From a virus (taxonomy: Duplodnaviria; Caudoviricetes): a DNA stretch of 61,172 nucleotides. The position numbers were made by a program, and so were the translations under genes. Under the pieces are notes generated by a model that was not told the DNA's origin, searched no databases, and was given only the letters and a program-made list of their open reading frames with translations. Shown here piece after piece: positions 21,815 through 61,172 of this stretch. Where the stretch lies: positions 1-61,172 of the IMG/VR virus record IMGVR_UViG_3300032053_000073; one strand, 5' to 3'. Each line of letters begins with the position of its first letter. The stretch's first letter is position 1.

Positions 21815-22303
21815 TTAATCTTCCCATTTAATAATTAAATTATATCCTGCGTTTATTATTAACTTTTCACGCGCCAATGTTTTATTATGTAATTCTTTAT
21901 ACGTTGTTTTTGTCATTGGATTAATATCATTTGGATTAAAGCTTTTTGGACAACCATGCCAAAACTTACCATGAAACTCATAAACTGTATTTATTTCTGG
22001 AACATAAGCATCAGCCTTTATATATTTTTTACCAATCTTTATTTTTGCTTGTCTATATTTTTGATCTATATTTAATGAGTCAAGCCATATAGTTTCTGGT
22101 TTAGAAATAATATGGGTGCATTTTGGACAACCTTGACCTTTCAGATGATGATTTGGAGTTTGTTCAAAATCACCATGAATAAGGCACGTTATCGTTACCT
22201 TGGTTTTGTTATTTATATAAATAATTTTTCCGTAACTACATTTATTTAATGGATGAACAGCGTTTGCTTTTTGTATGAAGATGTTTGCTTTAACTGCTTC
22301 CAT
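21815..22303 (-). CDS. Zn-repeat (x1) + Vsr/EDxHD-like endonuclease
   Basis: CxxHG..QTPNHHL..GCPKC then SKPE..ADAY..YEFHGKFWHG. Confidence 0.75.
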   Translation of the reverse strand: MEAVKANIFIQKANAVHPLNKCSYGKIIYINNKTKVTITCLIHGDFEQTPNHHLKGQGCPKCTHIISKPETIWLDSLNIDQKYRQAKIKIGKKYIKADAYVPEINTVYEFHGKFWHGCPKSFNPNDINPMTKTTYKELHNKTLAREKLIINAGYNLIIKWED

Positions 22304-22479
22304 TACTTTGAAACATCTGAAATCATTTTTTTGAATTCGTCAGCTGTCATTTCGGCAGAGTTTACTATTTTTTTAGATTGGTTTATGTGATCTTTAGCTG
22401 AAATAATAATTAAAATTTTACCGGCCTCATCAGACTTCCTTGCTTCTACATAACTTCCATCTTCAAAATCAATTCTCAT
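22303..22479 (-). CDS. 58-aa hypothetical protein (not in ORF track)
   Basis: MRIDFEDGSYVEARK...SDVSK*; fills the gap and overlaps both neighbours. Confidence 0.6.
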   Translation of the reverse strand: MRIDFEDGSYVEARKSDEAGKILIIISAKDHINQSKKIVNSAEMTADEFKKMISDVSK

Positions 22480-22670
22480 TTTATCTTTCTGAATAAAACA
22501 ACAATATATTCTTCATTGTTTTTAACTTTAATAACGCTAGATTCAATGTATCCATTATACATTAATTGATTTTTTAAAAGGAAAGATATTCCATCATACA
22601 AACTATTACATTTGTCAGTTTTTGAATTGCCATCTGGTGCTACAAAAATTGAAAAATATTGTTCTTGCAT
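22476..22670 (-). CDS. hypothetical protein
   Basis: tightly packed ORF. Confidence 0.5.
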   Translation of the reverse strand: MQEQYFSIFVAPDGNSKTDKCNSLYDGISFLLKNQLMYNGYIESSVIKVKNNEEYIVVLFRKIK

Positions 22671-22671
22671 T

Positions 22672-22899
22672 TTATTTCTTTAAGCTAGATTTAATTGGTG
22701 CATCAACAATTTTTTCTTCTTCCAAACCAATTTCATGCATAAAATCATCAGACATAATTATTTCAAATATTTTTCTATCTATTTTTGGAATTAGGGCCAT
22801 AGCTTTATATGCAAACGCTTTTGGAACGATTAAAGAATCAATCGTTAGTGCCATATATTTACGAATAATTATAAGATTATTTATTCTTTCGAAATCCAT
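22672..22899 (-). CDS. hypothetical protein
   Basis: tightly packed ORF. Confidence 0.55.
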   Translation of the reverse strand: MDFERINNLIIIRKYMALTIDSLIVPKAFAYKAMALIPKIDRKIFEIIMSDDFMHEIGLEEEKIVDAPIKSSLKK

Positions 22900-22900
22900 A

Positions 22901-23176
22901 TTAACCCTTTACAAGTCCGCCGCGAATAAAACTACCATCTTCATTCAAAAGATCTACCGATGGACTTAGACCGTATTTCATAAAAAGCTGAAGAACTACG
23001 TATTTATAAGATACTTCTGCAGATTCGTGCTGCGCTAATGCTTTTTCTGCTGTAACTAAAGCCAGCTTCTTATTTGATTTTGCAAGTTCTAAGGCAAAAC
23101 GATCATCATCTGAAATATGTTCAGTTTGCATCTTGGTTGGCATGGTGGCATCGGTATCTAATACTTGTTGTGTCAT
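22901..23176 (-). CDS. hypothetical helical protein
   Basis: AGGAG RBS; TGATATATA motif upstream. Confidence 0.65.
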   Translation of the reverse strand: MTQQVLDTDATMPTKMQTEHISDDDRFALELAKSNKKLALVTAEKALAQHESAEVSYKYVVLQLFMKYGLSPSVDLLNEDGSFIRGGLVKG

Positions 23177-23241: not shown

Positions 23242-23967
23242 ATGAAAAATAAAAAAATATTAGACCAAGAAAAACAATACAAAAAAGAGTACTACGAAGC
23301 GAACAAAGTAATGATTTCTGAAAAGAACAAAAGGTATTATGAGGAAAATAAAGAAGATATCATTAAACTAAATAAGCAATATCGCCATGAACATGCGGAT
23401 CGCATATCTGCACAAAGAAAAATATATCGAGAGATTAATCGGCAGAAGATATCCGACAAAAGGAAAATATATTATCAAGAGAAAAGGCAGGCCATTTTAA
23501 ACAAAAGAAAACAATATAGAAAATATAACAAAGAAAAAATATTAAAACAAAATAATGAATATACAAAATTAAAATTAAAAACAGACCCGGGTTATAAATT
23601 AAGAAAAAATATAAGTAGATCTATTTCTGCCCATCTCAAACGTCAAGGCTTCGCCAAGAACTGCTCTATCATCAATGCCCTGCCGTATACCATAGAAGAG
23701 CTTAGGGGGCACCTAGAAGCCATTTTTGAGCCGTGGATGACTTGGGAGAGCCATGGTACGTACAAAGTCGATTTATGGGACGATTCTAATGAAAAAACTT
23801 GGACATGGCAAATTGACCACATTATCCCACATAGTTATTTTAAGTACTCAACAATGCAAGATGATGATTTCAAAAAATGTTGGGCTTTAAATAATCTAAG
23901 GCCATACTCATCTAAACAAAATATTTTAGATGGGGCAAAAAGAGACGTCAAATATTTCCAGCTTTAA
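23242..23967 (+). CDS. HNH-type endonuclease with Lys/Tyr-rich helical repeats
   Basis: YYExNKExI repeats; WQIDHIIP..CWALNNLRP..N. Confidence 0.75.
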   Translation: MKNKKILDQEKQYKKEYYEANKVMISEKNKRYYEENKEDIIKLNKQYRHEHADRISAQRKIYREINRQKISDKRKIYYQEKRQAILNKRKQYRKYNKEKILKQNNEYTKLKLKTDPGYKLRKNISRSISAHLKRQGFAKNCSIINALPYTIEELRGHLEAIFEPWMTWESHGTYKVDLWDDSNEKTWTWQIDHIIPHSYFKYSTMQDDDFKKCWALNNLRPYSSKQNILDGAKRDVKYFQL

Positions 23968-24916
23968 TTATGTTGTTAGAATCAATGTTTTTATTTAAAT
24001 ATTTAATGTTATTATCTATTAACGCCTTCATAATAATTTTTTTAATTTGTTGAGGCCCATATTTTCCCGCATGATATGGAATAGCGGGAATACAAACAAG
24101 TTTAATCCCCTCTTTTTCGCACATTTGTTTTTTGAATATATCTCTTTCTATATAATCCGCCAAAGATTTTTTGCTCATCTTAAATGAGCCAACTATTTTG
24201 CTATGTTGCTCACCTTGGTATTCTATTCCTACATTTAGCGATTTATTAAACATATCAATTTCAAGATTTCTCATTGTTTTTGGAAATTTTAAGAAATCTG
24301 GCCGAATTTTAATAAACTTTTCACCCGTTAATTCCTCAACAATATATCTAACAATCTTTTCGCGCCTACTTGATGAACAATAAGGACATCCCCTGTGCTG
24401 TTTTAATTTGTCTAAACAGCATTGAAATATATGATTTTGATAACAGCGTATATTTAGTTTGGTCCTAGCGTTCGTATAATTTTTAGATAAACATGTGAAA
24501 CCTATAGATGTACAATAATCTATAACCTCTTTTATCCCTGGTTTCTGTAATCTTAAACAAACCCTACATCCTTTGCCCATTTCTAGATCTCTAAAGTTTT
24601 TTAATATTTGGTGGCCTTTTGGACATATAAATGTCATTTTAGAATAACAATTAATATATGTTGTTTCTAGACATTTCCACCCACTTTTATTACAAAAATC
24701 TAAAATATATTCCATAGTTTTAGGCTTGCGGTTAGAACAATAAACGCACCTTCTTTTGTAATAAAACAAGTTATTAAAACTAATGGCACAATTATGACCA
24801 TTATCGCAAATTAAACTTAATTTGTATTTGCCGCCAGTATATTCTGTGGAAATACAAATATAGTTAATTGATTCGCAATAATCTTTAATGAACCCTATAG
24901 TTATTTCGTTTCTCAT
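23948..24916 (-). CDS. Zn-ribbon repeat (x3) + Vsr-like endonuclease
   Basis: CxxxH..CxxC repeats; LEIDMFN..GIEYQGEQH. Confidence 0.75.
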   Translation of the reverse strand: MRNEITIGFIKDYCESINYICISTEYTGGKYKLSLICDNGHNCAISFNNLFYYKRRCVYCSNRKPKTMEYILDFCNKSGWKCLETTYINCYSKMTFICPKGHQILKNFRDLEMGKGCRVCLRLQKPGIKEVIDYCTSIGFTCLSKNYTNARTKLNIRCYQNHIFQCCLDKLKQHRGCPYCSSSRREKIVRYIVEELTGEKFIKIRPDFLKFPKTMRNLEIDMFNKSLNVGIEYQGEQHSKIVGSFKMSKKSLADYIERDIFKKQMCEKEGIKLVCIPAIPYHAGKYGPQQIKKIIMKALIDNNIKYLNKNIDSNNIIKAGNI

Positions 24917-24919: not shown

Positions 24920-27277
24920 TCATAATATATCGGCAGAAATAGTGGCCAATCGACTTCTTTCGCCCTTAGTAAAAGTAACGTGCCCTGCAATTTGTTGATC
25001 TTTAAATTTTTCGATAACATATGCCAGACCATTATTTGTTGCGTCCAGGTCTTTACTATCAATTTGGTCAATATCACCGGCTAGAATTATTTTTGTTCCT
25101 TCTCCGGCTCTTGTTAAAATTGTTTTTGCGTCTTCTTTAGTAATATTTTGCATTTCGTCGATGAGCATAATAGCGTTTGGAATGCTGCGACCACGAATAT
25201 ATGTTAGGGCCTGCAATTCAATTTTACCCTTCTTTTTAAACATTTCAAAATCACGCAGCCAATTATCTCCATTCGAATTTTGAAATAGAACCTCGAAATT
25301 ATCCATTATAGCCTCAAACCATGGTGATAATTTTTCTTCCATAGTATTATGAGTTAAAATAAATTCGTCAGTTGCATATAGATGATCATCTGATTCAATA
25401 AGAATGCATTTTGTGTCTTTAAACCCAACTGTAGTAATATCAGTTATCATACGGTGCAATTGATGTTTTCTTGGTTTATATCTGCTAATTTTTCTATCCA
25501 ATCTAAACGGGCACATATAATTTGGTAAAGAAACGCTAACCACGTTTGATATTAATTCTTTTTCAATTCCATCATAAATGTACGAACTGTGTTTTTTATT
25601 TATTTTTGCAATTCCGCCTAAAGATTGAACTATAAATTTTACGTCCTGTGCAAGCTGATCAGATGTTGTAGAATAACTAACATCATTACCATCCGATGAA
25701 ACAAATCCGTCCGTATCCATCAATCCTTGTAATAGAGATAATCTATTAACTATAGAATTAATTTTATATTCTTTTGGTATAAATTTGGTTCTTGATTTTG
25801 ATCCAAGTAAACCTAACTTTTTTATTTCTTTGGCAAAAATATTATCCTGCCTATGTTCATTATTTAAATTATTTTTAACAATAAAAGAATAATTACAGCT
25901 GCCATTTACTTTATTTTTTATTTTACATAACATATCTGAAGGAATTAATTTTTTACAATTTTCAGCTATTTGTTCATCTGATGATGTAAAATAAACAGAG
26001 GAGTTTTCAGATAAAGTACCATCCCCCAATAAAATTCCCATGATGTATGGATCAATTACAGTTTCGTTATTTTCAAAGTTGACCGGGTTAATTAATTTAA
26101 TTTTATGATTATTTATTTTAGATTTATATACCTTAAGAGTTTCTTTAATTTCTTTTAAGGATTTTATGCTTCCCATTCCATTTTGTCTTTGTGACTCTTG
26201 TAATGATGTTGTTTCCCATAAATGGTCTTCACAACATTCTGTAAAAGAATTATCTGAAAAATGAACTTTAAAAACTTCCTTTTTGCCCTTTGGAAATATT
26301 TTTAATACTTTTTTAGGATTGCCGTCTGAGCCAATGACATAATCATTTACACTAATATCTCCCATTGTAGTCCAACCATTTGGGGTAAAAATTTTAGCAT
26401 CCAATGGTTGTGGCCCGGGTAAATAGCCTAAATCATTCCCTACCGCCTGAATTGGCCTATAAACAATAAGTTTATCATAATGTTTACTTGTAACTAATTC
26501 TAAAGCGGTTGCCAGAGCTATTATGCTTTTACCAGAACCAGCTTTACCGACCAATGTAACTAATGCCACGCCTGGATCTGAAATTAAATCAATTGCATAC
26601 GCTTGTTCATTATTCCTGGCATTTATATTCCATGGATAAGATTTCTTAATAATTTTTATTTTATTTTTTGATATTTTACGACCCATGGAAACTATGTCGC
26701 CATCTTCATCTAAAAATGTAACGCACTCATTCATTAACATATCTATGCCGGAAGTTTTGGTATCAAGGTGTCCGTTTGCCAATAGTTCCGTTCCAATTTC
26801 TTCATTTACTATCACCCTGCTTCCAGAGTATAATTCAGATATTGATGTTTTATCATATTCGTACGCTTCCGCTTTAATACCCAATGATCTTGCTCTAACA
26901 CGACAGCTTATATCATTGGTTACCAGTGTTACATGACTATTTATATTATAGGCCAATGCGCATGAAATAATTCTCGTATCGCCATATAATGCAGACCCTA
27001 GGCTTTCGGGAATTACATATGACGTGGTATCAATTTTAAGAATAACGCCATTTTCTATTTTTATTCCATCATAGATATTTCCACGCGCACTAATTTCATC
27101 CAATGCACGAATACAGACTCTTGCGCCCATCGATCTTTTATCAGAACCTTTTTTGAGCTTATCTAACTCATCTAACACTGTAATCGGAATAATAACTTGA
27201 TTATTATGAAAATTCTTAAAACAGAACGGATCGTCAATAAGTGTACATGTGTCGAGAATTATAGTTGTGTTGGTCAT
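24920..27277 (-). CDS. phoH: PIN-PhoH (PhoH2-type) protein with intein
   Basis: N-terminal PIN (ILDT..ELDKLK..D..LVTND); GKAGSGKS; GYLPG; YIRGRS; IDEMQN; TRAGEG; GDIDQID. Confidence 0.92.
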   Translation of the reverse strand: MTNTTIILDTCTLIDDPFCFKNFHNNQVIIPITVLDELDKLKKGSDKRSMGARVCIRALDEISARGNIYDGIKIENGVILKIDTTSYVIPESLGSALYGDTRIISCALAYNINSHVTLVTNDISCRVRARSLGIKAEAYEYDKTSISELYSGSRVIVNEEIGTELLANGHLDTKTSGIDMLMNECVTFLDEDGDIVSMGRKISKNKIKIIKKSYPWNINARNNEQAYAIDLISDPGVALVTLVGKAGSGKSIIALATALELVTSKHYDKLIVYRPIQAVGNDLGYLPGPQPLDAKIFTPNGWTTMGDISVNDYVIGSDGNPKKVLKIFPKGKKEVFKVHFSDNSFTECCEDHLWETTSLQESQRQNGMGSIKSLKEIKETLKVYKSKINNHKIKLINPVNFENNETVIDPYIMGILLGDGTLSENSSVYFTSSDEQIAENCKKLIPSDMLCKIKNKVNGSCNYSFIVKNNLNNEHRQDNIFAKEIKKLGLLGSKSRTKFIPKEYKINSIVNRLSLLQGLMDTDGFVSSDGNDVSYSTTSDQLAQDVKFIVQSLGGIAKINKKHSSYIYDGIEKELISNVVSVSLPNYMCPFRLDRKISRYKPRKHQLHRMITDITTVGFKDTKCILIESDDHLYATDEFILTHNTMEEKLSPWFEAIMDNFEVLFQNSNGDNWLRDFEMFKKKGKIELQALTYIRGRSIPNAIMLIDEMQNITKEDAKTILTRAGEGTKIILAGDIDQIDSKDLDATNNGLAYVIEKFKDQQIAGHVTFTKGERSRLATISADIL
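25346..26413 (-). mobile_element. intein in PhoH (356 aa, Pro1, class-3 signature, LAGLIDADG endonuclease)
   Basis: GYLPG|PQPLDAKIFTPNGW...CCEDHLW...ILLGDG...GLMDTDG...TKCILI..ILTHN|TMEEK. Confidence 0.9.
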
Positions 27278-27739: not shown

Positions 27740-28387
27740 TCAGTTACATTTAGAATATTGACAACTTAAACAAATGCTACACCCACTTTGATAAACGAGT
27801 GTATTTTCAGCATTACAATTTGAACATATTTTATCGGCTGTTGAGGTAGTCCCATCTTTAATGTAAGACTTTAATACTCTTGAAATAACCCTGGAAAAAG
27901 ATGTCATTTCCGAATACTTATCTTTACCCAGCTGTTCCACTACATATTGAAGGGGGATTCCGTGGCGCAATGATAATGACAATAAGCGAGTAAAGCTGCC
28001 ATAATTCTTATTTTCGAATACGTTAGCTATATCTTTAATGGTCATTTCATCATCTGTCTCTCCAACAGACAGATTATACGTAGCAATGCCATCAACCTTA
28101 CCATTTTTTAATATTTTGCCGGATTTATATTTATTTTGAATATCAACATATTTAGACAAGCCTCCAAATATTTCATATGGCTTATTATTTAACATGCCAA
28201 CGAAAATAGTCCATTGCTCACCTTGAACTTTAACCTTTTTGATATCGCAAATTAATTCTTTCGGTCTCTTTGGAGCCGATATGTATTTAATATCATCTGG
28301 CCTTGCTTCTGCAGGCATATTATTTATTTCGTTGGTTTTAACAAGTTTCCAGTTAATAATTTTCTTTTCAATTTTACATGTTACCAT
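27740..28387 (-). CDS. nrdJb: NrdJb-like (TSCPD + Zn ribbon) second part of class II RNR
   Basis: KIEKKI start; KRPKEL; KPYEIF; SLSLRHG; C-terminal CxxC..CxxCxxC..SKC. Confidence 0.75.
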   Translation of the reverse strand: MVTCKIEKKIINWKLVKTNEINNMPAEARPDDIKYISAPKRPKELICDIKKVKVQGEQWTIFVGMLNNKPYEIFGGLSKYVDIQNKYKSGKILKNGKVDGIATYNLSVGETDDEMTIKDIANVFENKNYGSFTRLLSLSLRHGIPLQYVVEQLGKDKYSEMTSFSRVISRVLKSYIKDGTTSTADKICSNCNAENTLVYQSGCSICLSCQYSKCN

Positions 28388-31300
28388 AAATACCCTCTTT
28401 TAGCGCATCAAATAAATTAGCAACATTATGTGTTTCACCATCGTATTCAACTGAGTCCGACCCCTTTAGCACTACCTCAGACCCGCCCTCAAGCGTAAAT
28501 GTATATTCGGAATTATCTAAATCTTTCTTTTGCATCAATACACCGCTAGAGATTTCCGCATTTGGACGATATGTTGTTATACCTTTGAGACCAAGCTTCC
28601 ATCCTTCGAAATATACGCTCTTAAAATCTTCAAATGAATAATCGGCAGGGACATTTATTGTTTTTGAAATTGCACTATCACACCATTTTTGGGCGGCAGA
28701 TTGAACAATTAAATGATCCATAACTGTCAAATCATCTGTGACCCTCCAATATTTAGGAAGCTCTTTATCCCCAAACATCTCTTTCCATAGATAGAATGAA
28801 TAATCACAGACCTCTTCTTGTGTTTTAGTTTTCTTTTGCGGGTCTCTTATATTTCGTAGATAAGAATTAGCAAATACTGGCTCTATTCCATTTGAACAAT
28901 TATTACCCCATGTCAGCGAAAGTGTGCCGGTTGGAGCAATTGATGTTGCATGAGAATATCGTAGTCCGTATGTAAGTATATCGGACATTACCTGTTCTTT
29001 ATCTGGTAGCTCACCCAATAATCGTTTCATATAGCCAGATTGCATAACAAGCTTTCTAGCGCTAACATCGTTAAATATTGGCGCAGGACCCTTTTCTTTG
29101 GCCAATAATATATTTTCCCTTAAACTTGCATCGGCTAATATAAAAGATATTTTATCTGTTAGTTCAACGCTTTCTTTTGAGCCATAACTGATGCCTAACA
29201 TATTAAACACGGATCCAAGCCCGGTAATTCCTAAACCATGACGACGTTTTAGTATGATTTGATCTTGTAGTTCTTTTAATGGTAAATTGTTTAATTCTAC
29301 TACGTTATCTAGAATGCGCGAAGTAATTTTAACGTCATTTGCTAGCTTATCAAAATCAAATGTGGCGTTATTAGAAAAAGGATTGCCAACATAAGAAGGG
29401 AGAATCATGGATCCTAATAGACAAGAACTGCTTGGATTCAAGAATTGCTCACCACAGTTTCTTAAAAAAATTCCATCGTAAGATATTTTATCTGAGTTTA
29501 TTTTTGTTATTACTCCAACAGTATGGTTATCATCTACGGTAATATTATATACAGTTTGTGTTTCATTTAATTCAACAACAGACATTACCTTGTGATTATA
29601 ATTTTCACCGGCCTCTTTTATTTCTGCAAATTTTTTATATCCAAATTTTAATGTTTTTCCAATTCGATATGATAAATTATTTTTTGAGCACTCTTCCGCC
29701 CACTCAACAAATTTCGGGTCACGATTCAATTTAAATTTTAAATCTGAATAAATTTTTGCTTGAGCCGCTTTAAGTTTAATAGAACGGGTTTTATAAAAAT
29801 TACAATTTTTATTTCTATTGTTTTCTATCCAAACGGCATTATTTGCATTATATTTACCTAAACATTTTGATGAGCAAAATGTAGTTTCTCTTGTAGAGCA
29901 ATGTGTATCAAAAATATTATTACAAATTTTACATGTTTTTTCAATATAAACAGTATTATTTTTAATTTTTGCGCTATATCCTTGTTGTAACATGCTTTGG
30001 TAAGATTTTATTGTTCTTGGGTCATTATAAATATGTTCCATGTTTAATTCTAGCGCACAAAGGCATGACAGTTGTTTAACGGTTCCTAAAACATCGGACC
30101 TAAATTTAGAAGTCTGCTGAGGCAATCCATTGTTGTCTGCATAACAACGCCATTCGCTCACAGAAAATCTTCTTCCGAGTGATTTAGTAAGCTTCATAGC
30201 GTGATTTTTAATATCTTCCGAAGTAATTCCAGAATATCGTGGATTTCTTTCGCCGGAATTATCTCGTTTACCATGCATAATAGCATGATCTGAAAAAGTC
30301 ATCACCTCTAAATTATCCGGATTATTGTTAATTGAATTATAATCTTTATGATGAATTACTATTCCACCCGTTTTAGCAAATCCATTTTTTTTTGTTTGGT
30401 CATATAGCGCTTTAAATTGTCCTGGGTAAAAAAACTTATAAATTAACCGGTGTTCATATTCTTGATTTTCACGGTAATTATGTATATTGCAATGAACAGA
30501 TAAATACTTTCTTCCGCCTTTCTTTATAATCTTAGCGTCTTTTTTAAACCTCGGCAAACTATCTCCATATTTAAGATTTTTTGCCTCAATAACAGATCCA
30601 TCTATTAAAATACACTTATGATCAGGGGTTATTTCTACAGCACTTCCATCATCTAAAGTAACTCTGATCATTTTTTTATTTGTGCCAGTTATCCTTGGAT
30701 TCCTGCCAATTTTTATTGATACTTTCCCTTTCTTATCAACTGAATAAACAGGTACGTCTTTACCTTCTTCAGCTAATTGTTTAATTGATACCGCGTTGCG
30801 ACCATCTGCAACGGCAATCATAGTGTCCCCAGAGAAACATGGGTTAGCTGCACGCATAACTTCACAGAACCATAGATTATTTTCGATATTCACCCTATCA
30901 ATTAACATAAATCCCGGTTCCCAAAAATTATATGTTGACTTAATAATCAAATCGAATAAATCTTTTGCTTTAATTGTCTTATAAACTTTCTTAATAAATA
31001 CAGTATCAGTTAAACAGTTTTTGAACTCAACCTCTGCATGATCTTTTGCAAATGAGAAATAATTATATTGTGGATAATTATAAGGTATATCATCTTTTTT
31101 AATAATGCAAACGTCTACATCTTTGGCATTCAAATCACAATTCTTTTCCCAGAACCATAAATCCCAATCTAGATCATCAGCAACGGCTTTCATAAACTTA
31201 TCTGTGACTAAAATCGAGCAATTAAAATATCTTAGAACGCCATCTTGTCTTTTGGCAGTTATAAAGCTTTCAATTTCCGGAGAACATATATCAAGGCAGG

Positions 31301-31823
31301 CCATTTGAGCGCCACGTCGAGAGCCACCAGACATAATGGTTGAGCACATTGAATCAAAAATCTTCATAAAAGAAATAATGCCGGATGTTGCTGATCCTGC
31401 GCCAAATACATGCGCTCCTGCCGGTCTAATAGTGCTGAAATCATAACCAACGCCACAGCCAGATTTTAATGTTAATGCCGCCTCTTTTGCCACCTGCATA
31501 ATTCCTTCAAGAGAGTCCGGGATTTGGCGCATGACCGTACAATTAATTGGTGATGTTTCTTTTTTATACTCGCTTGCACCAATATTTGCCATAATTCTTC
31601 CACCTCCGGCAAACTTAGTTCCCATGACGGACATAAATTGTTTATAATATTTCTCTTGATTTTCAGGTTTTTCCTGGGCGGCTAATGTTAAAGCAACTCG
31701 TTTACATGTGTCCTCTGGAGTTTTATCAATATTATTGCCGTAATTATCTTTCAAACGATATTTACCAGATTCGCCGCCCCAAATTTCAAAAGAAATATTT
31801 TGCTTAAACATAAAAATCTCCAT
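28374..31823 (-). CDS. nrdJ: class II (B12-dependent) ribonucleotide reductase with intein
   Basis: GGRIMAN, INCTV, RRGAQM, NP|C..|CGEQ, IAPTGT, AISKTIN, KGITTYR. Confidence 0.92.
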   Translation of the reverse strand: MEIFMFKQNISFEIWGGESGKYRLKDNYGNNIDKTPEDTCKRVALTLAAQEKPENQEKYYKQFMSVMGTKFAGGGRIMANIGASEYKKETSPINCTVMRQIPDSLEGIMQVAKEAALTLKSGCGVGYDFSTIRPAGAHVFGAGSATSGIISFMKIFDSMCSTIMSGGSRRGAQMACLDICSPEIESFITAKRQDGVLRYFNCSILVTDKFMKAVADDLDWDLWFWEKNCDLNAKDVDVCIIKKDDIPYNYPQYNYFSFAKDHAEVEFKNCLTDTVFIKKVYKTIKAKDLFDLIIKSTYNFWEPGFMLIDRVNIENNLWFCEVMRAANPCFSGDTMIAVADGRNAVSIKQLAEEGKDVPVYSVDKKGKVSIKIGRNPRITGTNKKMIRVTLDDGSAVEITPDHKCILIDGSVIEAKNLKYGDSLPRFKKDAKIIKKGGRKYLSVHCNIHNYRENQEYEHRLIYKFFYPGQFKALYDQTKKNGFAKTGGIVIHHKDYNSINNNPDNLEVMTFSDHAIMHGKRDNSGERNPRYSGITSEDIKNHAMKLTKSLGRRFSVSEWRCYADNNGLPQQTSKFRSDVLGTVKQLSCLCALELNMEHIYNDPRTIKSYQSMLQQGYSAKIKNNTVYIEKTCKICNNIFDTHCSTRETTFCSSKCLGKYNANNAVWIENNRNKNCNFYKTRSIKLKAAQAKIYSDLKFKLNRDPKFVEWAEECSKNNLSYRIGKTLKFGYKKFAEIKEAGENYNHKVMSVVELNETQTVYNITVDDNHTVGVITKINSDKISYDGIFLRNCGEQFLNPSSSCLLGSMILPSYVGNPFSNNATFDFDKLANDVKITSRILDNVVELNNLPLKELQDQIILKRRHGLGITGLGSVFNMLGISYGSKESVELTDKISFILADASLRENILLAKEKGPAPIFNDVSARKLVMQSGYMKRLLGELPDKEQVMSDILTYGLRYSHATSIAPTGTLSLTWGNNCSNGIEPVFANSYLRNIRDPQKKTKTQEEVCDYSFYLWKEMFGDKELPKYWRVTDDLTVMDHLIVQSAAQKWCDSAISKTINVPADYSFEDFKSVYFEGWKLGLKGITTYRPNAEISSGVLMQKKDLDNSEYTFTLEGGSEVVLKGSDSVEYDGETHNVANLFDALKEGIYGNM
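29457..30839 (-). mobile_element. intein in RNR (461 aa) carrying an HNH endonuclease
   Basis: AANP|CFSGDT..TPDH..HHKDYNSINNNPDNL..VYNITVDDNH..FLRN|CGEQ. Confidence 0.9.
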
Positions 31824-47757: not shown

Positions 47758-47759
47758 TT

Positions 47760-48830: not shown

Positions 48831-48867
48831 ATCTGATTGTTATATAGCATGTAGAGATATTATTAAA

Positions 48868-49653
48868 ATGTTTTATGTTTACTTAATTCAAAATAAATTA
48901 AATAATAAATTATACATCGGCAAAACCAATAATTTAACTCGAAGATGGAGCGAGCACAAAAAGGTTGCGTTTGGCGGAAAAGAAAAATATGGCAGAGGGT
49001 TTAGAGCTATTCATTGTGCTTTATCAAAATACGGAGCCGATAATTTTATATTTTTTGACATTGAGAGATTTGATAATGAGGTAGATAGTTATGATGCCGA
49101 GAAATTTTGGATAGAATTTTTTGGGTCTAATAAAAAACAATTAGGATACAATGAAACGTCTGGAGGGGAAGGGCTTGGATCCGGAGTCAGTCACCCTTTG
49201 TATGGAACTCACCCCACAAAAGAAACTCGGGAAAAACTTAGGGCCGCACAAAAAAGAAGAGTTCCAGTGCTAGGGCGTAAACATAGTATTGAAACTAAAA
49301 AACAATATAGTATAGATAGATCTGGTGAAAAAAATGCTATGTTTGGGAAAAAACAAACGGGTGTGGCTAAACTAAAAATAAGTATGGCTAAATTGGGCAA
49401 AAGCAATTCAATGAAAGGGACCAAAAAAACATATGAGCAAAGAAAAATAATTAGCGAAAATGTATTAAAATCTCTTTCAAAATTAAAGGGAGAAGATCGG
49501 CCAAATGCCAAATTAAGCAATGTGCAAGCGGCCGAAATTAGACATATATTTAAAAATAAAACGAAATCGCCAAAAGAAATTTGTCAAATATATAATATAA
49601 GTAAACCTACGTTATATAGAATAATTGGATTTAAAACCTACAAAATAGATTAG
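48868..49653 (+). CDS. GIY-YIG homing endonuclease with NUMOD3
   Basis: probable start MFYVYLI; KLYIG; GYNETSGG; HSIETK. Confidence 0.88.
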   Translation: MFYVYLIQNKLNNKLYIGKTNNLTRRWSEHKKVAFGGKEKYGRGFRAIHCALSKYGADNFIFFDIERFDNEVDSYDAEKFWIEFFGSNKKQLGYNETSGGEGLGSGVSHPLYGTHPTKETREKLRAAQKRRVPVLGRKHSIETKKQYSIDRSGEKNAMFGKKQTGVAKLKISMAKLGKSNSMKGTKKTYEQRKIISENVLKSLSKLKGEDRPNAKLSNVQAAEIRHIFKNKTKSPKEICQIYNISKPTLYRIIGFKTYKID

Positions 49654-49671
49654 TCTAGTTTTCTATATTAA

Positions 49672-50561
49672 TTACCCGTTATTTTTTAAAAAAACATCTT
49701 CCCACATTATTACTAAATTATATCCGGCATCTTTAATTAACCTTTCGCGGTCTAATGTTTTTTATATAATTCGCCAAAGGTTTTGTTATTTGTTTTATTA
49801 ATATCTTTCGATTTATATATTCTTGGATTTCCATGCCAATAATTACCATGAAACTCATAAACTGTATTTGTTTCTGGAATATAAGCATCAGCCTTTATAT
49901 ATTTTTTACCAATCTTTATTTTTGCTTGACGATATTTTGGATCTATGTTTAAAGAATCAATCCATATAGTTTCAGGTTTAGAGATAATATGGGTGCATTT
50001 TGGACAGCCACGACCTTGTAGATGATTATGTGGAGTTTGTTCAAAATCACCATGAACAGGGCATGTTATCGTTACTTTTGTATAGGCATTAATATAATCA
50101 ACTTCTGTATAAATCCATTTATCTCCATGCTTTCCAATGGCTTCTTTTATAAATTGTTCGGCATCTTTTGTCTTTGCGTATATAGCACATTTTGGACAAC
50201 CTTGGCCTTGCAGATGACTATTTGGAGTTTGTTCAAAATCACCATGAATAGAACAAGTTATCGTTACCTTTATAATGGCACTAATATAATTTACTTCTGT
50301 ATAAATCCATTTATCTCCATATTTTTTAACAGCTTCTTTTATAAATTGATCTGTGTCTTTTTTTGCAACTCCAGCGCATTTTGGACAACCTTGACCTTGT
50401 AGATGATTATGTGGAGTTTGGGAATAATCACCATGAATATCACATGTTATTATTACTTTTGTTTTTGCGCTAACATAAATAGTTTTATTATAATTCCATT
50501 TTGACTGGTGAATAACATTAGCCTTTTGTATGAAAATATTTGTTTTATTCAGAATCCCCAT
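49672..50561 (-). pseudogene. Zn-repeat (x3) + Vsr-like endonuclease with a 1-nt deletion near the 3' end
   Basis: A6 run at about 49758-49763 versus A7 in paralogue 47760; the missing tail TLDRERLIKDAGYNLVIMWED continues in another frame to the stop at 49672. Confidence 0.7.
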
Positions 50562-50774
50562 CTACTCTCGTTTTCTATAAACAATTCGTCCTTTTGTTGT
50601 ATCATATGGAGAGATTTCAACTTTTACTTTATCACCGATTAATATTTTAACGCTGTTCATTCTAATACGGCCAGCAAGTGTACACGTTATAACATGAGAA
50701 TCGCTAACCTTTACATTAAACAGCCCCTTAGATGAATCTACGACCTCTCCCTCAAATTCTAACATATCCGCCAT
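50562..50774 (-). CDS. infA: translation initiation factor IF-1
   Basis: EGEVV..F.V..GRIRMN..IL.GDKV.VE.SPYD.TKGRI.YR. Confidence 0.95.
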   Translation of the reverse strand: MADMLEFEGEVVDSSKGLFNVKVSDSHVITCTLAGRIRMNSVKILIGDKVKVEISPYDTTKGRIVYRKRE

Positions 50775-50779
50775 ATAAA

Positions 50780-51445
50780 TTATCCTCCTTTTAATATTTT
50801 GTTAATTAAACCACTTTCACGATTTATAATTTCCATAACCATTTCGTGAGGCGGATATACAGTTAGCCACCCCTTTTGTTTTTGACAAGGGAACATAACA
50901 AACCCTTCGATTTTTTGCTCAATAAAAAACTGAACATTTTTATTCTGCACAATAAGTGTTAAAGTCTCAAGTCCAAGATTAAGCGGTGAGCATATATTAA
51001 TTTTATTATTATAAACGTAATAAGTTCTTAAAAAATTATCAATACCCAAGAGTGCGAAAACGATATTATCTGTAAATATATCCTCATCTTTTCCTAATGC
51101 CACATATAATAATTTACTTATTTTTGCAATTTTATAAATAGGTAAATTATGATATAAGTCGGTGCAAATAATTCTTTTTCTATCTATACTTAAATCATCA
51201 AAAATTATACTTACTTTTTTATCTTCAGAAATATTAAGAGAATTACCGAACTCATCAAACCACTTATTATCAAGTTTATAATTTGTTGGCAAGCGTTTGG
51301 ACTTTAGCATTATTGATGGTTTTAATCGGCATAATCTGATGATATCGCTAAGATTTTCGTATCTTGAATAAGACTCTACTAATAATATTTTTTTATATAT
51401 CCTGTCATATAATCGTTCAATTCCTAAAGCTTTATTCCTGGGCAT
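50780..51445 (-). CDS. hypothetical protein
   Basis: ORF. Confidence 0.6.
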   Translation of the reverse strand: MPRNKALGIERLYDRIYKKILLVESYSRYENLSDIIRLCRLKPSIMLKSKRLPTNYKLDNKWFDEFGNSLNISEDKKVSIIFDDLSIDRKRIICTDLYHNLPIYKIAKISKLLYVALGKDEDIFTDNIVFALLGIDNFLRTYYVYNNKINICSPLNLGLETLTLIVQNKNVQFFIEQKIEGFVMFPCQKQKGWLTVYPPHEMVMEIINRESGLINKILKGG

Positions 51446-53674: not shown

Positions 53675-54151
53675 TCACATGAAAGCAATATATAATTCCA
53701 TCTGGTCTTTTGTCAATCTAATATCATTCGGAAAATTTAATTGTTTTCCATCAAGCCAATATTCAAAGTATGTTCCATTCTTTTCTTCAAGGGCAGGACC
53801 ATCTTCTCGATGTTGTTTGCCGTTTATAAACCAAAACTTATCTCCATTGGCATATTCAATAGCAGGACCATCTTCTCGATGACATTTGCCATTTTTATAC
53901 CAAAACTTATTTCCATTGGCATATTCACAAGCAGGACCATCTTCTCGATGTAGTTTGCCGTTTTTATACCAAGACTTATCTCTATTGACATCTTCAACAG
54001 CAGGACCATCTTCTCGATGTAGTTTGCCGTTTTTAAACCAAACCTTATCTCCATTGGCATATTCAATAGCAGGACCATCTTCTCGATGTCGTTTGCCGTT
54101 TTTATACCAAAACTTATCTCCGTATTTGTCTATTTCTAATTCATTTTTCAT
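53675..54151 (-). CDS. HREDGPA (MORN-variant-like) 23-aa repeat protein
   Basis: five 69-bp repeats of GxKxWxxNGKxHREDGPAxE. Confidence 0.8.
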   Translation of the reverse strand: MKNELEIDKYGDKFWYKNGKRHREDGPAIEYANGDKVWFKNGKLHREDGPAVEDVNRDKSWYKNGKLHREDGPACEYANGNKFWYKNGKCHREDGPAIEYANGDKFWFINGKQHREDGPALEEKNGTYFEYWLDGKQLNFPNDIRLTKDQMELYIAFM

Positions 54152-56584: not shown

Positions 56585-56810
56585 AATTATAGAATTGCCT
56601 TGGCGAAGATGGCGCGCGTTTGATTGGTCGGCTGCCTATGACAATGCCATTTGCTGGGCCGTAAACCATATTTAGAAATTACTTTGAGTTCCAATGGGCT
56701 CACGATAGGTTAAAGCGTCTTTGGGGCCTTCCTGGTTCGATTATGAAAAAATACATGAAATAAGGTATAATCTGAATTAGTTTAATGTGAAATACTTAAA
56801 CATTGTTCTT

Positions 56811-56886
56811 AGGTTGATCTCGACAAAATCACTAGTCCGAGGTTGATCTCGACAAAATCACTAGTCCGAGGTTGATCTCGACAAAA
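56811..56886. repeat. 29-bp perfect tandem repeat x2.6
   Basis: AGGTTGATCTCGACAAAATCACTAGTCCG at 56811, 56840 and partial at 56869. Confidence 0.95.
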
Positions 56887-56969
56887 CCGTAAGGACTATA
56901 GGATTTAAGATTATCAAGAGAATTAGTGTTTTAAGAATTTTGTTCTATGAAAGTTGTTTTTAAATTAAC

Positions 56970-57131
56970 TTCTCTGTTAACTCAGAGGTTCTTAGGAGGG
57001 ACAACATAGTTAACTTATTGTTTTTATTATTGTTTTCTCTGTTAACTCAGAGGTTCTTAGGAGGGACAACATAGTTAACTTATTGTTTTTATTATTGTTT
57101 TCTCTGTTAACTCAGAGGTTCTTAGGAGGGA
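56970..57131. repeat. 65-bp perfect tandem repeat x2.5
   Basis: TCTCTGTTAACTCAGAGGTTCTTAGGAGGGA at 56971, 57036 and 57101 with identical AT-rich intervening sequence. Confidence 0.95.
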
Positions 57132-57272
57132 AATCACTAGTAAGCCATTGAAATTATTTGTTTAATTGTTAAGTTTTTAGTTTATTCAATTATTAAAAAA
57201 TATTTAACCACTTGATTTATTTTTTGCCATGAATAAGTTGCCTTGAACATTCACGCTGTAAAATAGAAATCA

Positions 57273-57512
57273 ATGCACCTATCACAATTTTTAGCATATA
57301 AACCGTGCTGCCCAATATGTGAATCAAAATTATCAACCAATTTGTTTTCAACTAGAAAATATCATTGTAGATATGAAGATACTAATTTGGTTTATTCGAC
57401 TAATATTAATTTTGCCTTTTCATTGGGAAAGAATAATAAACCAATTAATATAGATATAGTAATGAATTATGTTGATGATATATTTTATGGATTACGCCGT
57501 AAAACCCCGTAG
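57273..57512 (+). pseudogene. CxxC protein, probably truncated at an IS-end-like hairpin
   Basis: N-terminus resembles 59006..59617 (YxPCxxCxSK); ends inside the palindrome. Confidence 0.45.
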
Positions 57513-57533
57513 TTTAAGCTCGGGGTAATTGAC
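57501..57533. mobile_element. IS200/IS605-family terminal hairpin remnant
   Basis: ACCCCG-TAGTTTAAGCT-CGGGGT-AATTGAC (reverse complement GTCAATTACCCC...), recalled as typical of IS605/IscB element ends. Confidence 0.55.
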
Positions 57534-57571
57534 AATTCAGTGAAATAATGCTCATAAAGAAATATAATATC

Positions 57572-58216
57572 ATGCGAACAAAAATAGATGAAATTATAAA
57601 ATTAGCAGATCACTTCTTTAAAGTAGCAAAATCTAAAAAATCGCCAGATAAGTCGGATGATGTTGACAATATATTAGCCGATATTGAAAAACTTGATACA
57701 TTCGCCGCAAGAAAAAAGCTTGCAGAGAAAAACTTTAAAAGATTATCATCTGGCTCATCAAGGATCGTATATAAATTAAATGATAGGTTTGTTATTAAGC
57801 TAGCTAAAAATAAAAAGGGTATAGCTCAAAATAAAACTGAATCAAACCCGGACATGAAGTCAAAATATATTAATAAGGTTGTTGAAACTGGCAAAAAATA
57901 CTTGTGGATTAAAACTTTTTATTTGGATAAAATAACCGAAAAAGATTTTGAGGAATTGACAGATGTGAATTTTAAAGATTTTGGAAATGCAATTAGTTAT
58001 GGGCTAAGAGAAATATCATCAGATGAATCAAAGAAACCTGGATGTTTTGATGATGTTAGAAAAACAAAAGTATATAAAGAGTTTGATAGGCTTGGTAAAA
58101 AATTCAAATTATTACCAGGTGATATTAGCAGAATTTCAAGCTGGGGCAAATCAGGCGATAATGTTATACTGATCGATAGCGGCCTTTCTAGAAAAGTTTT
58201 TGATAAATATTATTGA
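57572..58216 (+). CDS. protein-kinase-like fold protein
   Basis: LSSGSSRIVY, VIKLA..QNKTE, GDI..SSWG, LIDSGL. Confidence 0.7.
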   Translation: MRTKIDEIIKLADHFFKVAKSKKSPDKSDDVDNILADIEKLDTFAARKKLAEKNFKRLSSGSSRIVYKLNDRFVIKLAKNKKGIAQNKTESNPDMKSKYINKVVETGKKYLWIKTFYLDKITEKDFEELTDVNFKDFGNAISYGLREISSDESKKPGCFDDVRKTKVYKEFDRLGKKFKLLPGDISRISSWGKSGDNVILIDSGLSRKVFDKYY

Positions 58217-58271
58217 TATGGTTTATTTTTTTATATTTTGACTTGCCGATTACGATGCTTAGAATACCTGT

Positions 58272-58601
58272 ATGTATTGTAAATTATGTAATTGCAAAAT
58301 GGATAAGGCAGAGTCGGCTTCTGGCACATATATAAACTTCAATTGCCCATGTCATAAATATTTTTTAATATATAAGCACAGTGTTTTGTATATTGAGAAA
58401 GCATATACTGAAAATTATGAAATAATATTAAATCATATAAAAAATCAAAGTCGTTTTTATTGTCGTTTAGATATTAATAATTTAGATATGAACAATATAA
58501 CTAGGAATAGCCACGCGCCTTTATTCATAACTGGTGCATTTTCATTTTCAAATTTAAATGATCTTGAAAAAAAGATAGAAATATTTGAGATTTTCCAATG
58601 A
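58272..58601 (+). CDS. small CxxC protein with conserved C-terminal tag
   Basis: CKLC; ends LEKKIEIFEIFQ. Confidence 0.65.
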   Translation: MYCKLCNCKMDKAESASGTYINFNCPCHKYFLIYKHSVLYIEKAYTENYEIILNHIKNQSRFYCRLDINNLDMNNITRNSHAPLFITGAFSFSNLNDLEKKIEIFEIFQ

Positions 58602-58933
58602 TGAAAGATTGTAATATAAATTGTAAATTATGTAATAATGCCTTATGTTTTTTTGACTCTTGGGGAGAAACTGACGAAAAAGAAACATTCTATGAGTATA
58701 TGTGCTATAGTTGTACAAATTATAAAGTAATTAAAATGAATGATGGTTTTTATAGCGAGATAGCTTATCTTGGATCAACAATGATAGTTAATGAATTTGC
58801 AGACAATAAATGCGTTATTCGTTTTAAGCATATTTACGGGGCAAAAAATAGCCCGATAATAACAGAATTCATTCAGTTTAATAATAAAGAAGAGCTGTTA
58901 CATAAAATAGAAATATATGAGGTATTTAGATGA
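58598..58933 (+). CDS. small CxxC protein with conserved C-terminal tag
   Basis: CKLC..CYSC; ends LLHKIEIYEVFR. Confidence 0.65.
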   Translation: MMKDCNINCKLCNNALCFFDSWGETDEKETFYEYMCYSCTNYKVIKMNDGFYSEIAYLGSTMIVNEFADNKCVIRFKHIYGAKNSPIITEFIQFNNKEELLHKIEIYEVFR

Positions 58934-59005
58934 GAAAATTAAAGTTAATTCGAAAACGCCTAAACTTATGCTAAGCGATAGTAATATTATATTTTTGTTA
59001 ATAGC

Positions 59006-59617
59006 ATGCAAATCAATAATGGGCGTAAGCAATTTCACTCACCAATGAGACAGTTAACTATAAAAGATATAGCGTCATATTATTCCCCATGCTTAGCTTG
59101 TAAGTCAAAAACCACTCTAATATTGTCGGTTTATTCTGCTGAATTTGGATATCAAGAAATTGTTCCTAAAATAATTGGAAAATCAATGAATATTGATCTT
59201 AAAATTTCTTATTATAGTAGGTTTGTGCTAAACATAGATATCATGTCTCATAAGTTTTTAACTTCAAATATTACTGAATTTATGAAATATGCTGCTGAGA
59301 ATGTTTTTTGTTTATTTGTTTATTGTAAATCCTGCCATTCATATGTAGAAACAACTAAGTTAGAATTTAATATAACAGATAGAATATTAAAACCAATTTC
59401 CTTAGTTAAAGAAGGGTGGTCATTTATTGAGGATGACAGTATATATAAAGTTGACACTATAATGGATTTAGATCAAACAAAAATTGTGGTAGATAAAATT
59501 TCAGGAGTTAAACCAATTTCTCCATGGTCGCAAATAGTTAGTGCATTACCAATTCACAGATTTGGATCTAAGGAAAATATGATAGAAAAAATTAAATTAT
59601 ATATGGTATTCTCATGA
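59006..59617 (+). CDS. CxxC protein with conserved C-terminal tag
   Basis: CLAC..CKSC; ends MIEKIKLYMVFS. Confidence 0.65.
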   Translation: MQINNGRKQFHSPMRQLTIKDIASYYSPCLACKSKTTLILSVYSAEFGYQEIVPKIIGKSMNIDLKISYYSRFVLNIDIMSHKFLTSNITEFMKYAAENVFCLFVYCKSCHSYVETTKLEFNITDRILKPISLVKEGWSFIEDDSIYKVDTIMDLDQTKIVVDKISGVKPISPWSQIVSALPIHRFGSKENMIEKIKLYMVFS

Positions 59618-60075
59618 TTATTGAAAAATGTATCATTTGTTCATCAGAATTATCTAAATCTGTTGCCTGTATTGGAGAAAGATTTATTAAAAAGAAAAGC
59701 GGTTTACACTCCCTTAAACCACCGTATAAAGAAATTTGGTCATGTCCTAAATGTTGTAATAACAATTTCTATAAAAAGAACCCTTCCTCGCTAGAAACAA
59801 TAACAGAAAATGAATCATATATAATTTTTGAAGTTTACGCAGATTTATCTAAAAAGAAAATTGGCAAATGTATTAAAATCCATAAAGACAATATTACTTA
59901 TCTATATCAAGCTGAATTTAAAGTAAATATTTGGATTAATCAATTTATGGTTGCCGATCTGGGGAAACCAATAGATCAGATATTTATACAAAAAACTGAA
60001 GATTTGAAAATGTTTGAATTTAACAACATTGATGAGATGATTGATAAATTGTTAATTTATTTGACTTTTTCGTGA
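59614..60075 (+). CDS. CxxC protein with conserved C-terminal tag
   Basis: CIIC..CPKC; ends MIDKLLIYLTFS. Confidence 0.65.
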   Translation: MIIEKCIICSSELSKSVACIGERFIKKKSGLHSLKPPYKEIWSCPKCCNNNFYKKNPSSLETITENESYIIFEVYADLSKKKIGKCIKIHKDNITYLYQAEFKVNIWINQFMVADLGKPIDQIFIQKTEDLKMFEFNNIDEMIDKLLIYLTFS

Positions 60076-60110
60076 TATAATTCATGTAGTACACACTCGT
60101 CCATAATATC

Positions 60111-61172
60111 ATGAAAAAAAAAGATACCAAGCAATTTATAAAAGAAGCTGCTGAAAAATATGGAGATAAATGGGTTTATGCAAAAGTAATTTATATTAAT
60201 GCCTATACAAAAGTAACGATAACATGTCTTATTCATGGTGATTTTGAACAAATACCAAATAACCATCTGCAAGGTCATGGTTGTCCAAAATGCGCTGGAG
60301 TTGCAAAAACAAAAGACACCAAGCAATTTATAAAAGAGGCTGTTGAAAAAAATGGAGATAAATGGATTTATACAGAAGTTAATTATATTAATGCCATTAC
60401 AAAAGTAATAATAACCTGTCTAATTCACGGTAATTTTGAACAAAGACCAAATGACCATTTATCTGGCAAGGGCTGTCCAAAATGCGCTGGAGTTGCAAAA
60501 ACAAAAGATACCAAGCAATTTATAAAAGAGGCTGTTGAAAAAAATGGAGATAAATGGATTTATACAGAAGTTGATTATATTAATGGCAAAACAAAAGTAA
60601 CGATAACCTGTTCTATTCATGGTGATTTTGAACAAATACCAAATAACCATCTGCAAGGTCATGGTTGTCCAAAATGCGCTGGAGTTGCAAAAACAAAAGA
60701 TACAAAACAATTTATAAAAGAAGCTATTGAAAAATATGGAGATAAATATGGTTATGAAAAAGTAATTTATATTGGTGCCCATAAAAAAGTAACGATAATT
60801 TGCCCTATTCATGGTGATTTTGAACAAACTTCAAGTAACCATCTGCAAGGTCATGGTTGTCCAAAATGCGCTGGAAATACAAAAAAATATATTGAGCAAT
60901 TTATAAAAGAAGCTGCTGAAAAACATGGAGATAAATGGATTTATACAGAAGTTAATTATATTAATGACAAAACAAAAGTAACGATAACATGTCCTATTCA
61001 TGGTGATTTTGAACAAACTCCACATAATCATCTACAAGGCTGTGGCTGTCCAAAATGCACCCATATTATCTCTAAACCTGAAACTATATGGCTTGATTCT
61101 TTAAATATAGATCAAAAATATAGACAAGCAAAAATAAAGATTGGTAAAAAATATATAAAGGCTGATGCTTAT
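60111..61172 (+). CDS. Zn-repeat (x5) + Vsr-like endonuclease, runs off the window (not in ORF track)
   Basis: ATG at 60111, MKKKDTKQFIKEA..; about 192-bp repeats; ends THIISKPETIWLDSLNIDQKYRQAKIKIGKKYIKADAY. Confidence 0.85.
   Translation, partial: MKKKDTKQFIKEAAEKYGDKWVYAKVIYINAYTKVTITCLIHGDFEQIPNNHLQGHGCPKCAGVAKTKDTKQFIKEAVEKNGDKWIYTEVNYINAITKVIITCLIHGNFEQRPNDHLSGKGCPKCAGVAKTKDTKQFIKEAVEKNGDKWIYTEVDYINGKTKVTITCSIHGDFEQIPNNHLQGHGCPKCAGVAKTKDTKQFIKEAIEKYGDKYGYEKVIYIGAHKKVTIICPIHGDFEQTSSNHLQGHGCPKCAGNTKKYIEQFIKEAAEKHGDKWIYTEVNYINDKTKVTITCPIHGDFEQTPHNHLQGCGCPKCTHIISKPETIWLDSLNIDQKYRQAKIKIGKKYIKADAY

Follow-up and report, generated by a model that had tools for sequence, protein, structure and literature searches.

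Why does a 61-kb stretch of phage DNA carry six related genes that join arrays of zinc-binding repeats to a nuclease domain, and do these repeats spell out the sequence to be cut? The stretch in question, called the window below, is the whole IMG/VR record IMGVR_UViG_3300032053_000073 (61,172 bases; completeness rating 14%), which is a jumbo-phage fragment dense in selfish elements. A first-pass annotation made from its sequence had described five of the genes (A to E; Table 1) as a natural counterpart of zinc-finger nucleases (ZFNs) and transcription activator-like effector (TALE) nucleases (TALENs), in which specificity would be re-programmed by shuffling repeats between dispersed copies. 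Our analysis, which includes a sixth gene (F), favors another answer: the six genes are probably selfish, free-standing genes of the homing-endonuclease type, carried by a jumbo phage and made of a finger array and a Vsr-like nuclease. Their architecture (PMC12350094) and the idea of repeat shuffling (PMC10448857) have already been published, and the genes described here are new members of a described family; papers identified by PMC number are cited, here and below, from parts of their text.

If this reading is correct, the N-terminal array of CapR/DUF723/DUF4379-type fingers would bind an extended DNA target and the C-terminal Vsr/EDxHD-like nuclease would cut near the bound target. The cut genome would then be repaired from a gene-bearing genome, copying the gene together with its flanks, and the family would have multiplied in this phage lineage. 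Its arrays would change in length and composition by in-register recombination of ~192-nucleotide (nt) repeats, within a gene and between copies, and such changes would presumably alter target choice; a one-repeat-one-subsite code is no part of this proposal.

Finger arrays joined to a Vsr-like nuclease

The five genes of the first-pass annotation were all recovered by a motif scan for C-x2-H...C-x2-C (unit length of ~63 amino acids (aa)), which detected 21 units in total, with 1, 8, 4, 3 and 5 of them in A, B, C, D and E, respectively. The four-residue variants that had been listed between Q and HL were correct for A, C, D and E, but only four of the eight had been listed for B. Above Pfam cut-offs, genes B, C and E gave matches to DUF4379 (E down to 4.6e-18), which Pfam labels a "probable treble clef zinc finger", to DUF723 (7.1e-17), confirming the suggested DUF723-like nature of the units, and to CapR (1.1e-13; genes C and E), while the repeats matched PHROG 559 and 681 with E-values down to 1e-86. 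Gene F matched phrog_559 (E = 1.3e-32), its Pfam matches to DUF2726 and DUF4379 being weak.

Residues C35, H38, C54 and C57 were invariant across all 21 units (C40, H43, C59 and C62 in the numbering of gene A). Family-wide, in statistics drawn from 1189 unique repeats of 331 family proteins, H38 was replaced by Cys in 55 repeats, as expected of a metal ligand; H48, which is equally conserved, was replaced only by hydrophobic residues (F or L). The model of a single unit (predicted local distance difference test (pLDDT) of 93.9) began with a helix (residues 2-13), continued with strands and a short helix (45-49), and closed with a C-terminal helix that starts at the second Cys pair. Searched against the PDB, the finger sequence profile had no match at E <= 10, and the fold search gave nothing at E <= 0.001, the best neighbor being a chain of a trypanosome mitoribosome assembly factor (E = 0.32). 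The finger fold is of the treble-clef type (C-x2-[H/C]...C-x2-C) and not C2H2: a C2H2 finger has a beta-beta-alpha fold and a C-x2-4-C...H-x3-5-H order of ligands, with both His on the recognition helix, whereas the order found here was C-x2-H...C-x2-C. Considering this order, the treble-clef label and the replacement of H48 by F or L, the resemblance to C2H2 recognition helices that had been pointed out in the first-pass annotation was abandoned.

For the nuclease part, an AlphaFold2 model of gene A, which comprises one finger and ~100 C-terminal residues, had a pLDDT of 93.4, and its best PDB fold neighbors were E. coli Vsr, free and on DNA (1vsr, probability 1.00; 1cw0). The catalytic domain of I-Bth0305I (3r3p) ranked 35th (E = 0.74, probability 0.60, TM-score of 0.52 by target length). 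When the family nuclease profile was compared with the PDB, the sole matches at E <= 1 were three sequences, all of them Vsr. Taking Vsr residues E25, D51, H64, H69 and D97 as the reference for an EDxHD active site, the hidden Markov model (HMM) alignment placed family residues D98 and H116 opposite Vsr D51 and H69, and a Thr opposite Vsr D97. The pattern E...D...E..H...D (E70, D98, E109, H116 and D126 in gene A) was retained in A, B, C and D, and the truncated E retained its first E and D; the upstream E70 and downstream D126, kept in A to D, were compared with Vsr by sequence alignment. Pfam REase_MTES_1575 matched the nuclease part of gene B (E = 0.008), and a scan of A, B, C and E for Pfam T5orf172 (PF10544) gave no match. 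Altogether, the model and the alignments support the assignment of this predicted domain to a Vsr/EDxHD-like nuclease of the PD-(D/E)xK type, which, by analogy with Vsr and I-Bth0305I, would be expected to cleave DNA. The Pfam, PHROG, model and PDB matches thus bear out the combination of a zinc-unit array with a Vsr/EDxHD-like nuclease that had been proposed from sequence.

The copies are not all of the same age. Genes A, C, D and E are young paralogues that are 79-88% identical in DNA across hundreds of bases, in agreement with the high similarity noticed earlier for four of the genes, while gene B is old and shares only short matches of ~70% DNA identity with them. Tandem Repeats Finder detected a period of 192 in C, D and E (scores of 943, 603 and 1295); together with the Pfam and PHROG matches, this lies well outside what chance would produce. 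Gene E is cut off by the end of the record, its full-length form being found elsewhere (P0259, 416 aa). With six copies within 61 kb, four of them young paralogues, the genome offers an unusually clean collection of recent finger-array genes of the homing-endonuclease type.

The family to which these genes belong is large. The nuclease part alone retrieved 4315 representative clusters at E <= 0.001, and gene C at least 7394 clusters (90% identity) at E <= 1e-20. Among deposited phages, 817 records were matched by the whole gene C, many of them through the fingers alone, and five by a nuclease-only tblastn search, which had low power because of its short query and is not a count of the architecture. 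By motif count, the best 150 nuclease clusters had 0-6 fingers. In a biased sample of 474 collected family proteins, the Vsr-like domain was present in 307, with 0-10 fingers, and was C-terminal in 295 of these 307. The number of fingers thus varies throughout the family, and the 1-8 seen in the window fall inside this range.

Mobility of the genes and exchange of their repeats

Gene order around dnaB is conserved in relatives of this phage, and 10 of these cover the interval from dnaB to the conserved gene that comes next; none of the 10 has a finger-nuclease gene there. In the window, the stretch that follows dnaB is 2.1 kb long and is occupied by gene B. In G001, a related jumbo-phage record of 359 kb rated 83% complete, the junction downstream of dnaB holds a different gene, which is a homologue of an open reading frame (ORF) found at another place in the window (23242-23967), and this gene may itself be mobile and a competitor for the site of gene B. 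Genes A and F lie in non-syntenic islands between conserved genes, beside a GIY-YIG gene. The family query that gave 13 matches in the window found no family member in the four related records searched, G001 included. Two related jumbo-phage contigs, G005 and G006, represent other portions of such genomes. Each contains two copies (Table 1) whose DNA identity to the window genes is 73-86%; outside of the copies, neither contig has any DNA similarity of at least 300 bases to the window.

The first-pass annotation had asked for a per-repeat phylogeny as a means of detecting exchange between genes. When the 13 young repeats were cut into thirds and compared at the DNA level, the thirds grouped differently: in the first third, A1, C1 and D1 grouped together and C2 was identical to C4, while in the last third, the nuclease-proximal units A1, C4, D3 and E5 formed one group, C1, C3 and D2 another (91-96%), and E1 was identical to E3. 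Single units are thus mosaics of different relatives. This agreed with a PHI-like (four-gamete) test of 51 informative sites, in which neighboring sites were more compatible than shuffled ones (0.496 compared to a null of 0.567 +/- 0.017) and only one of 5000 shuffles gave a value as low (p = 0.0002). Long exact repeats were also found within the arrays: 134 nt common to units 2 and 4 of gene C, and 87 nt in gene E.

Variant alleles from public assemblies, all of them inside the same 90%-identity clusters, display the kinds of changes that such exchange would generate. P0007 is a two-finger form of gene C consisting of C1 and C4, which differs from C by a 381-nt deletion and is the exact product expected of recombination across the 134-nt repeat. 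P0476 corresponds to gene D, truncated as D is, plus a hybrid unit that raises the number of fingers to four, and P0005 is a two-finger, D-like form with an intact nuclease. P0477 is a six-finger C/E chimera in which C1-C3 are followed by E2, an E3/E4 hybrid, E5 and an E-type nuclease. Mosaic segments, the PHI-like test and this chimera support the conclusion that repeats are exchanged within and between dispersed copies, as had been anticipated in the first-pass annotation.

One might argue that most of the differences in repeat number, and most variant or chimeric alleles, arose when short reads were assembled through 192-nt repeats that are nearly identical. The exact repeats in C and E would favor such errors, the arrays are broken up in the k-mer contigs of four runs, and the two-finger C form and the C/E chimera lie on short contigs (5483 and 4179 nt, respectively). 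Against this stand the recovery of A and B on four contigs each and of the four-finger C on two contigs of up to 90 kb, the 24-kb and 37-kb contigs on which the four-finger D and the two-finger D-like forms are found with substitutions of their own, and the range of 0-10 repeats over thousands of family members. We therefore see only a very slight chance that assembly artefacts account for most of this variation.

Gene D is a recently broken copy. It is one base short in the A-run at 49758-49763, with a TAG stop then following at 49752-49754, so that its ORF ends at 49752 and loses ~27 C-terminal nuclease residues, while the remainder continues in another frame to 49672. A 1189-base contig spanning 48684-49872 with zero differences is present in three public runs, showing that the break is not the slip of one assembly, and the existence of P0005, an intact D-like allele, makes the truncation look recent. 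On TAT AAA AAA C, a -1 shift in which one A is read twice would bring the complete nuclease of gene D back into frame; nothing supports programmed -1 slippage at this A-run, and a plain frameshift mutation is a simpler explanation.

The state of gene D also bears on the possibility that some or all copies have been domesticated and are no longer homing, serving instead as nucleases against competing phages, satellites or host DNA, or as nuclease-dead DNA-binding regulators. The repressor CapR is itself a finger domain that has been domesticated (PMC8096241), and finger fusions or RepA_N fusions are deployed to counter satellites (PMC10448857). Gene D keeps three intact fingers next to its cut nuclease, the break recurs in the contigs of the three runs as well as in the four-finger P0476, and B and D are positioned for co-translation with the dnaB-like and IF-1-like genes. 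However, simple selfish elements would account for the presence or absence of genes at conserved junctions and for the GIY-YIG genes and inteins found alongside, and the intact P0005 argues that the truncation is young. We thus give domestication little credence and retain homing-endonuclease-type selfish genes as the most probable explanation.

Several observations nevertheless weigh against this explanation. The similarity to Vsr, taken in absolute terms, is weak both by fold (Foldseek E = 2.9e-3) and by sequence (HMMER E = 0.4), as is the Pfam Vsr match of the nuclease part of gene A (E = 0.09). The comparison of insertion status covers A, B and F, since the region that holds C, D and E has no syntenic counterpart in a relative. 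Repeat counts and variant alleles come from short-read assemblies, in which the 134-nt exact repeat could lead an assembler to collapse or mis-join arrays, and the k-mer contigs of the four runs, which break within repeats, neither confirm nor refute the counts. At least one copy, the truncated gene D, may be inactive. Finally, in the parts of the literature covered, we found no measured cleavage, DNA binding or homing for the finger-plus-Vsr group.

The Q-xPxx-HL segment and a possible recognition code

According to the programmable-system proposal, each repeat would read a fixed subsite mainly through its Q-xPxx-HL segment, and shuffling would re-programme specificity predictably, as in TALE- or ZFN-like proteins; a hypothetical code of this kind had been raised earlier, in general form, by other authors. 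Several findings are in its favor: family-wide, the x columns 46, 47 and 44 ranked 4th, 5th and 9th for entropy, with the flanking columns 50 and 52 ranking 2nd and 3rd, the short helix of the single-unit model coincides with this segment, repeats are exchanged between copies, and their number varies across the family.

The comparison of recently diverged repeats gave a different picture. Among the 13 young repeats, the proportion of nonsynonymous differences (pN) in the variable xPxx columns was 0.27-0.33, which is below the mean proportion of synonymous differences (pS) of 0.37 and also below the pN of other columns (0.42-0.56), namely helix 1 (0.48-0.49), the hairpin (0.42-0.51), the knuckle (0.56) and G-x-GC (0.48); values in the linker reached 0.5-0.7, and 14 columns had a pN above the mean pS. 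Thus, the variability that the first-pass annotation had seen in this segment holds family-wide, where its columns are among the top ones, but not among young repeats, and a per-column check of the dN/dS type, as it had suggested, points to other columns instead. The variable columns alternate with near-invariant ones (Q43, P45, H48, L49, G51 and G53) and, throughout the domain, variability tracks the faces of the predicted helix and strands that would be exposed, as should be the case for any small domain whether or not it touches DNA.

The repertoire of the segment argues in the same direction. The 1189 unique repeats contained 653 distinct forms of the four residues, of which the commonest, TPNS, made up 4.3%, so a small, TALE-like vocabulary did not hold, also in light of the 14 columns with a pN above the mean pS. 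TPNS and TPHN do recur in different genes, as had been noticed, but the segments on which they sit are 93-100% identical in DNA, indicating that the recurrence results from descent or conversion rather than from independent reuse. Moreover, neither profile nor fold searches provided a solved domain structure (best E = 0.32) that could guide the choice of contacts. Considering both sides, we regard a predictable, TALE- or ZFN-like programming of specificity by these repeats as unlikely, and the xPxx segment as a reasonable candidate for one part of the specificity surface, judging from its sequence variation.

A narrower version, in which the CapR-type finger would be a modular reader of a fixed number of base pairs per ~63-aa unit through the variable positions of E-Q-x-P-x-x-H-L-x-G-x-G, perhaps together with the hairpin turn, appears similarly doubtful to us. 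If it were true, dispersed copies that recombine in register would give rise to enzymes whose new targets could be predicted, and the relatives found here, with 1, 2, 3, 4, 5 and 6 fingers, would suffice to decipher the code. In the parts of the literature covered, we found no measured target for the finger-plus-Vsr group and no account of how a CapR-type finger reads DNA, and no structure of the CapR/DUF723/DUF4379 finger on DNA or recognition code for it was encountered. This lineage is a natural experiment in this respect, with young paralogues and population variants that differ chiefly in the fingers that they carry, and mapping their targets could reveal whether specificity is modular, a question that bears on the retargeting of homing endonucleases and on possible new DNA-targeting scaffolds.

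Related systems and genomic setting

The closest known system is a large, previously unrecognized group of homing endonucleases described in 2025 in NAR, with 3-5 CapR-like domains of ~60 aa and an EDxHD/Vsr-like nuclease, found in group I and II introns of jumbo-type phages and counting thousands of unannotated relatives (PMC12350094). The window genes share with it the tandem CapR/DUF4379/DUF723 domains, the C-terminal Vsr/EDxHD-like domain of ~100 aa and the jumbo-type phages, but they are free-standing, have 1-8 fingers and occur in six copies within 61 kb. Rfam and tRNA scans of the window gave no match, and the finger-nuclease genes are therefore not inside recognizable introns. To this described family, our analysis mainly adds new members and a well-supported case of repeat turnover.

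The fingers themselves are shared with T5orf172 (GIY-YIG-related) endonucleases such as ICP1 gp174, which were shown in 2023 to carry CapR/DUF723/DUF4379 domains as "beads on a string" (PMC10448857). It was argued there that modular repeats permit fast diversification of target recognition, and recombination between repeats was documented within a gene and between separate genes. The window genes resemble these endonucleases in their finger family, their degenerate DNA repeats, the recombination that changes repeat number and the location at boundaries of conserved gene modules (PMC10448857); the nuclease differs, being T5orf172 there and Vsr-like here. CapR of PLE, which represses the capsid genes of Vibrio phage ICP1, binds a specific promoter region and requires four Cys (PMC8096241), is the only relative with a measured sequence-specific, Cys-dependent binding to DNA, and by analogy with it the finger arrays of the window genes may bind DNA. 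It has a related zinc-binding domain, but only a single one, with no nuclease and with CxxC...CxC ligands instead of CxxH...CxxC (PMC8096241).

On the nuclease side, I-Bth0305I is the prototype of the EDxHD family, which was described together with its Vsr-like fold (PMC3239194). Like the proteins studied here, it is a phage-borne homing enzyme with a C-terminal Vsr-like nuclease and an N-terminal DNA-binding region; unlike them, it binds through NUMOD/helix-turn-helix motifs with no zinc fingers and is encoded in a group I intron (PMC3239194), and its sequence relation to the window nuclease is remote. Strictly defined, EDxHD enzymes have an N-terminal NUMOD/helix-turn-helix region and an association with introns or inteins, in place of which we found zinc units and no intron. 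Hef-type endonucleases of T4-like phages were also assigned to the Vsr-like family by Taylor et al. (PMC3239194), and four Hef-type copies were listed for phage LIMEstone1 (PMC3296691). Finally, engineered ZFNs and TALE nucleases share the tandem modular DNA-binding array and the separate nuclease domain, but they use C2H2 or TALE modules instead of treble-clef-type fingers and FokI instead of a Vsr-like nuclease, and their variation is confined to 2-4 columns of a known code, compared to ~20 columns and no known code here.

Table 1. Location of the finger-nuclease genes and of other features of the window or of related records (positions refer to the window unless another record is named).
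Feature	Position	Strand	Description
Gene A	21815-22303	-	162 aa; 1 zinc unit (22112-22288) and predicted Vsr-like nuclease (21818-22114)
Gene B	33737-35686	-	649 aa; 8 diverged zinc units (34079-35659) and predicted nuclease (~33788-34075)
Gene C	47760-48830	-	356 aa; 4 zinc units (48060-48809) and predicted nuclease (~47769-48062)
Gene D	49672-50561	-	3 zinc units (49989-50546) and predicted nuclease; frame broken
Gene E	60111-61172	+	5 zinc units (60123-61064) and start of predicted nuclease (from ~61062)
Gene F	23948-24916	-	322 aa; sixth, divergent member; three C..GH/C..H...C..C fingers and predicted PD-(D/E)xK-type C-terminal domain
GIY-YIG homing-endonuclease gene	20218-21000		
GIY-YIG homing-endonuclease gene	46026-46820		
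GIY-YIG homing-endonuclease gene	48796-49653		
ORF	23242-23967	+	No Pfam or PHROG match; homologues in G001 at 316146-316871 and 15182-15706
PhoH-like gene (PIN + PhoH)	24920-27277		Intein-type insertion
Ribonucleotide reductase large subunit gene	28374-31823		Intein-type insertion
dnaB-like gene	35686-37137		Stop overlapped by gene B start
IMPDH/GMP-reductase-like gene	42867-45080		Intein-type insertion
IF-1 homologue (translation initiation factor)	50562-50771	-	Pfam eIF-1a E = 5e-17; immediately upstream of gene D, abutting its start
Family copies in G005	17603-18487 and 16449-17531 of G005		Copy with two internal stops and 450-aa divergent copy, opposite strand
Family copies in G006	57842-58726 and 56688-57770 of G006		Copy with two internal stops and 450-aa divergent copy, opposite strand

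The replication genes of the window are 58-62% identical at the protein level to those of jumbo-phage contigs of 210-359 kb, and positions 15.3-41.5 kb are syntenic with 311-334 kb of G001. The same DNA is contained in sediment metagenome runs, while a near-identity DNA search of window positions 47000-51000 against deposited phages gave no match. Genes C and D form an island at 46.0-50.6 kb together with two of the three GIY-YIG genes, and one of these three genes also has NUMOD3 and helix-turn-helix motifs. The intein-type insertions in the PhoH, reductase and IMPDH-like genes were recognized by LAGLIDADG/Hint or HNH matches, and the PhoH and ribonucleotide reductase genes of relatives are without them.

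The G+C content is ~30-33% across the region of interest; along the window, it changes from ~0.37-0.44 in positions 1-16000 to ~0.28-0.35 in 16000-61172, and the strand skews flip sign there. Repeats of other kinds were also seen. A 69-nt unit present in 4.9 copies at 53786-54121 lies within an ORF (53675-54151) and corresponds to a 23-aa protein repeat, and two perfect intergenic repeats of 29 nt (2.6 copies) and 65 nt (2.5 copies) are located at 56811-56886 and 56970-57131, respectively.

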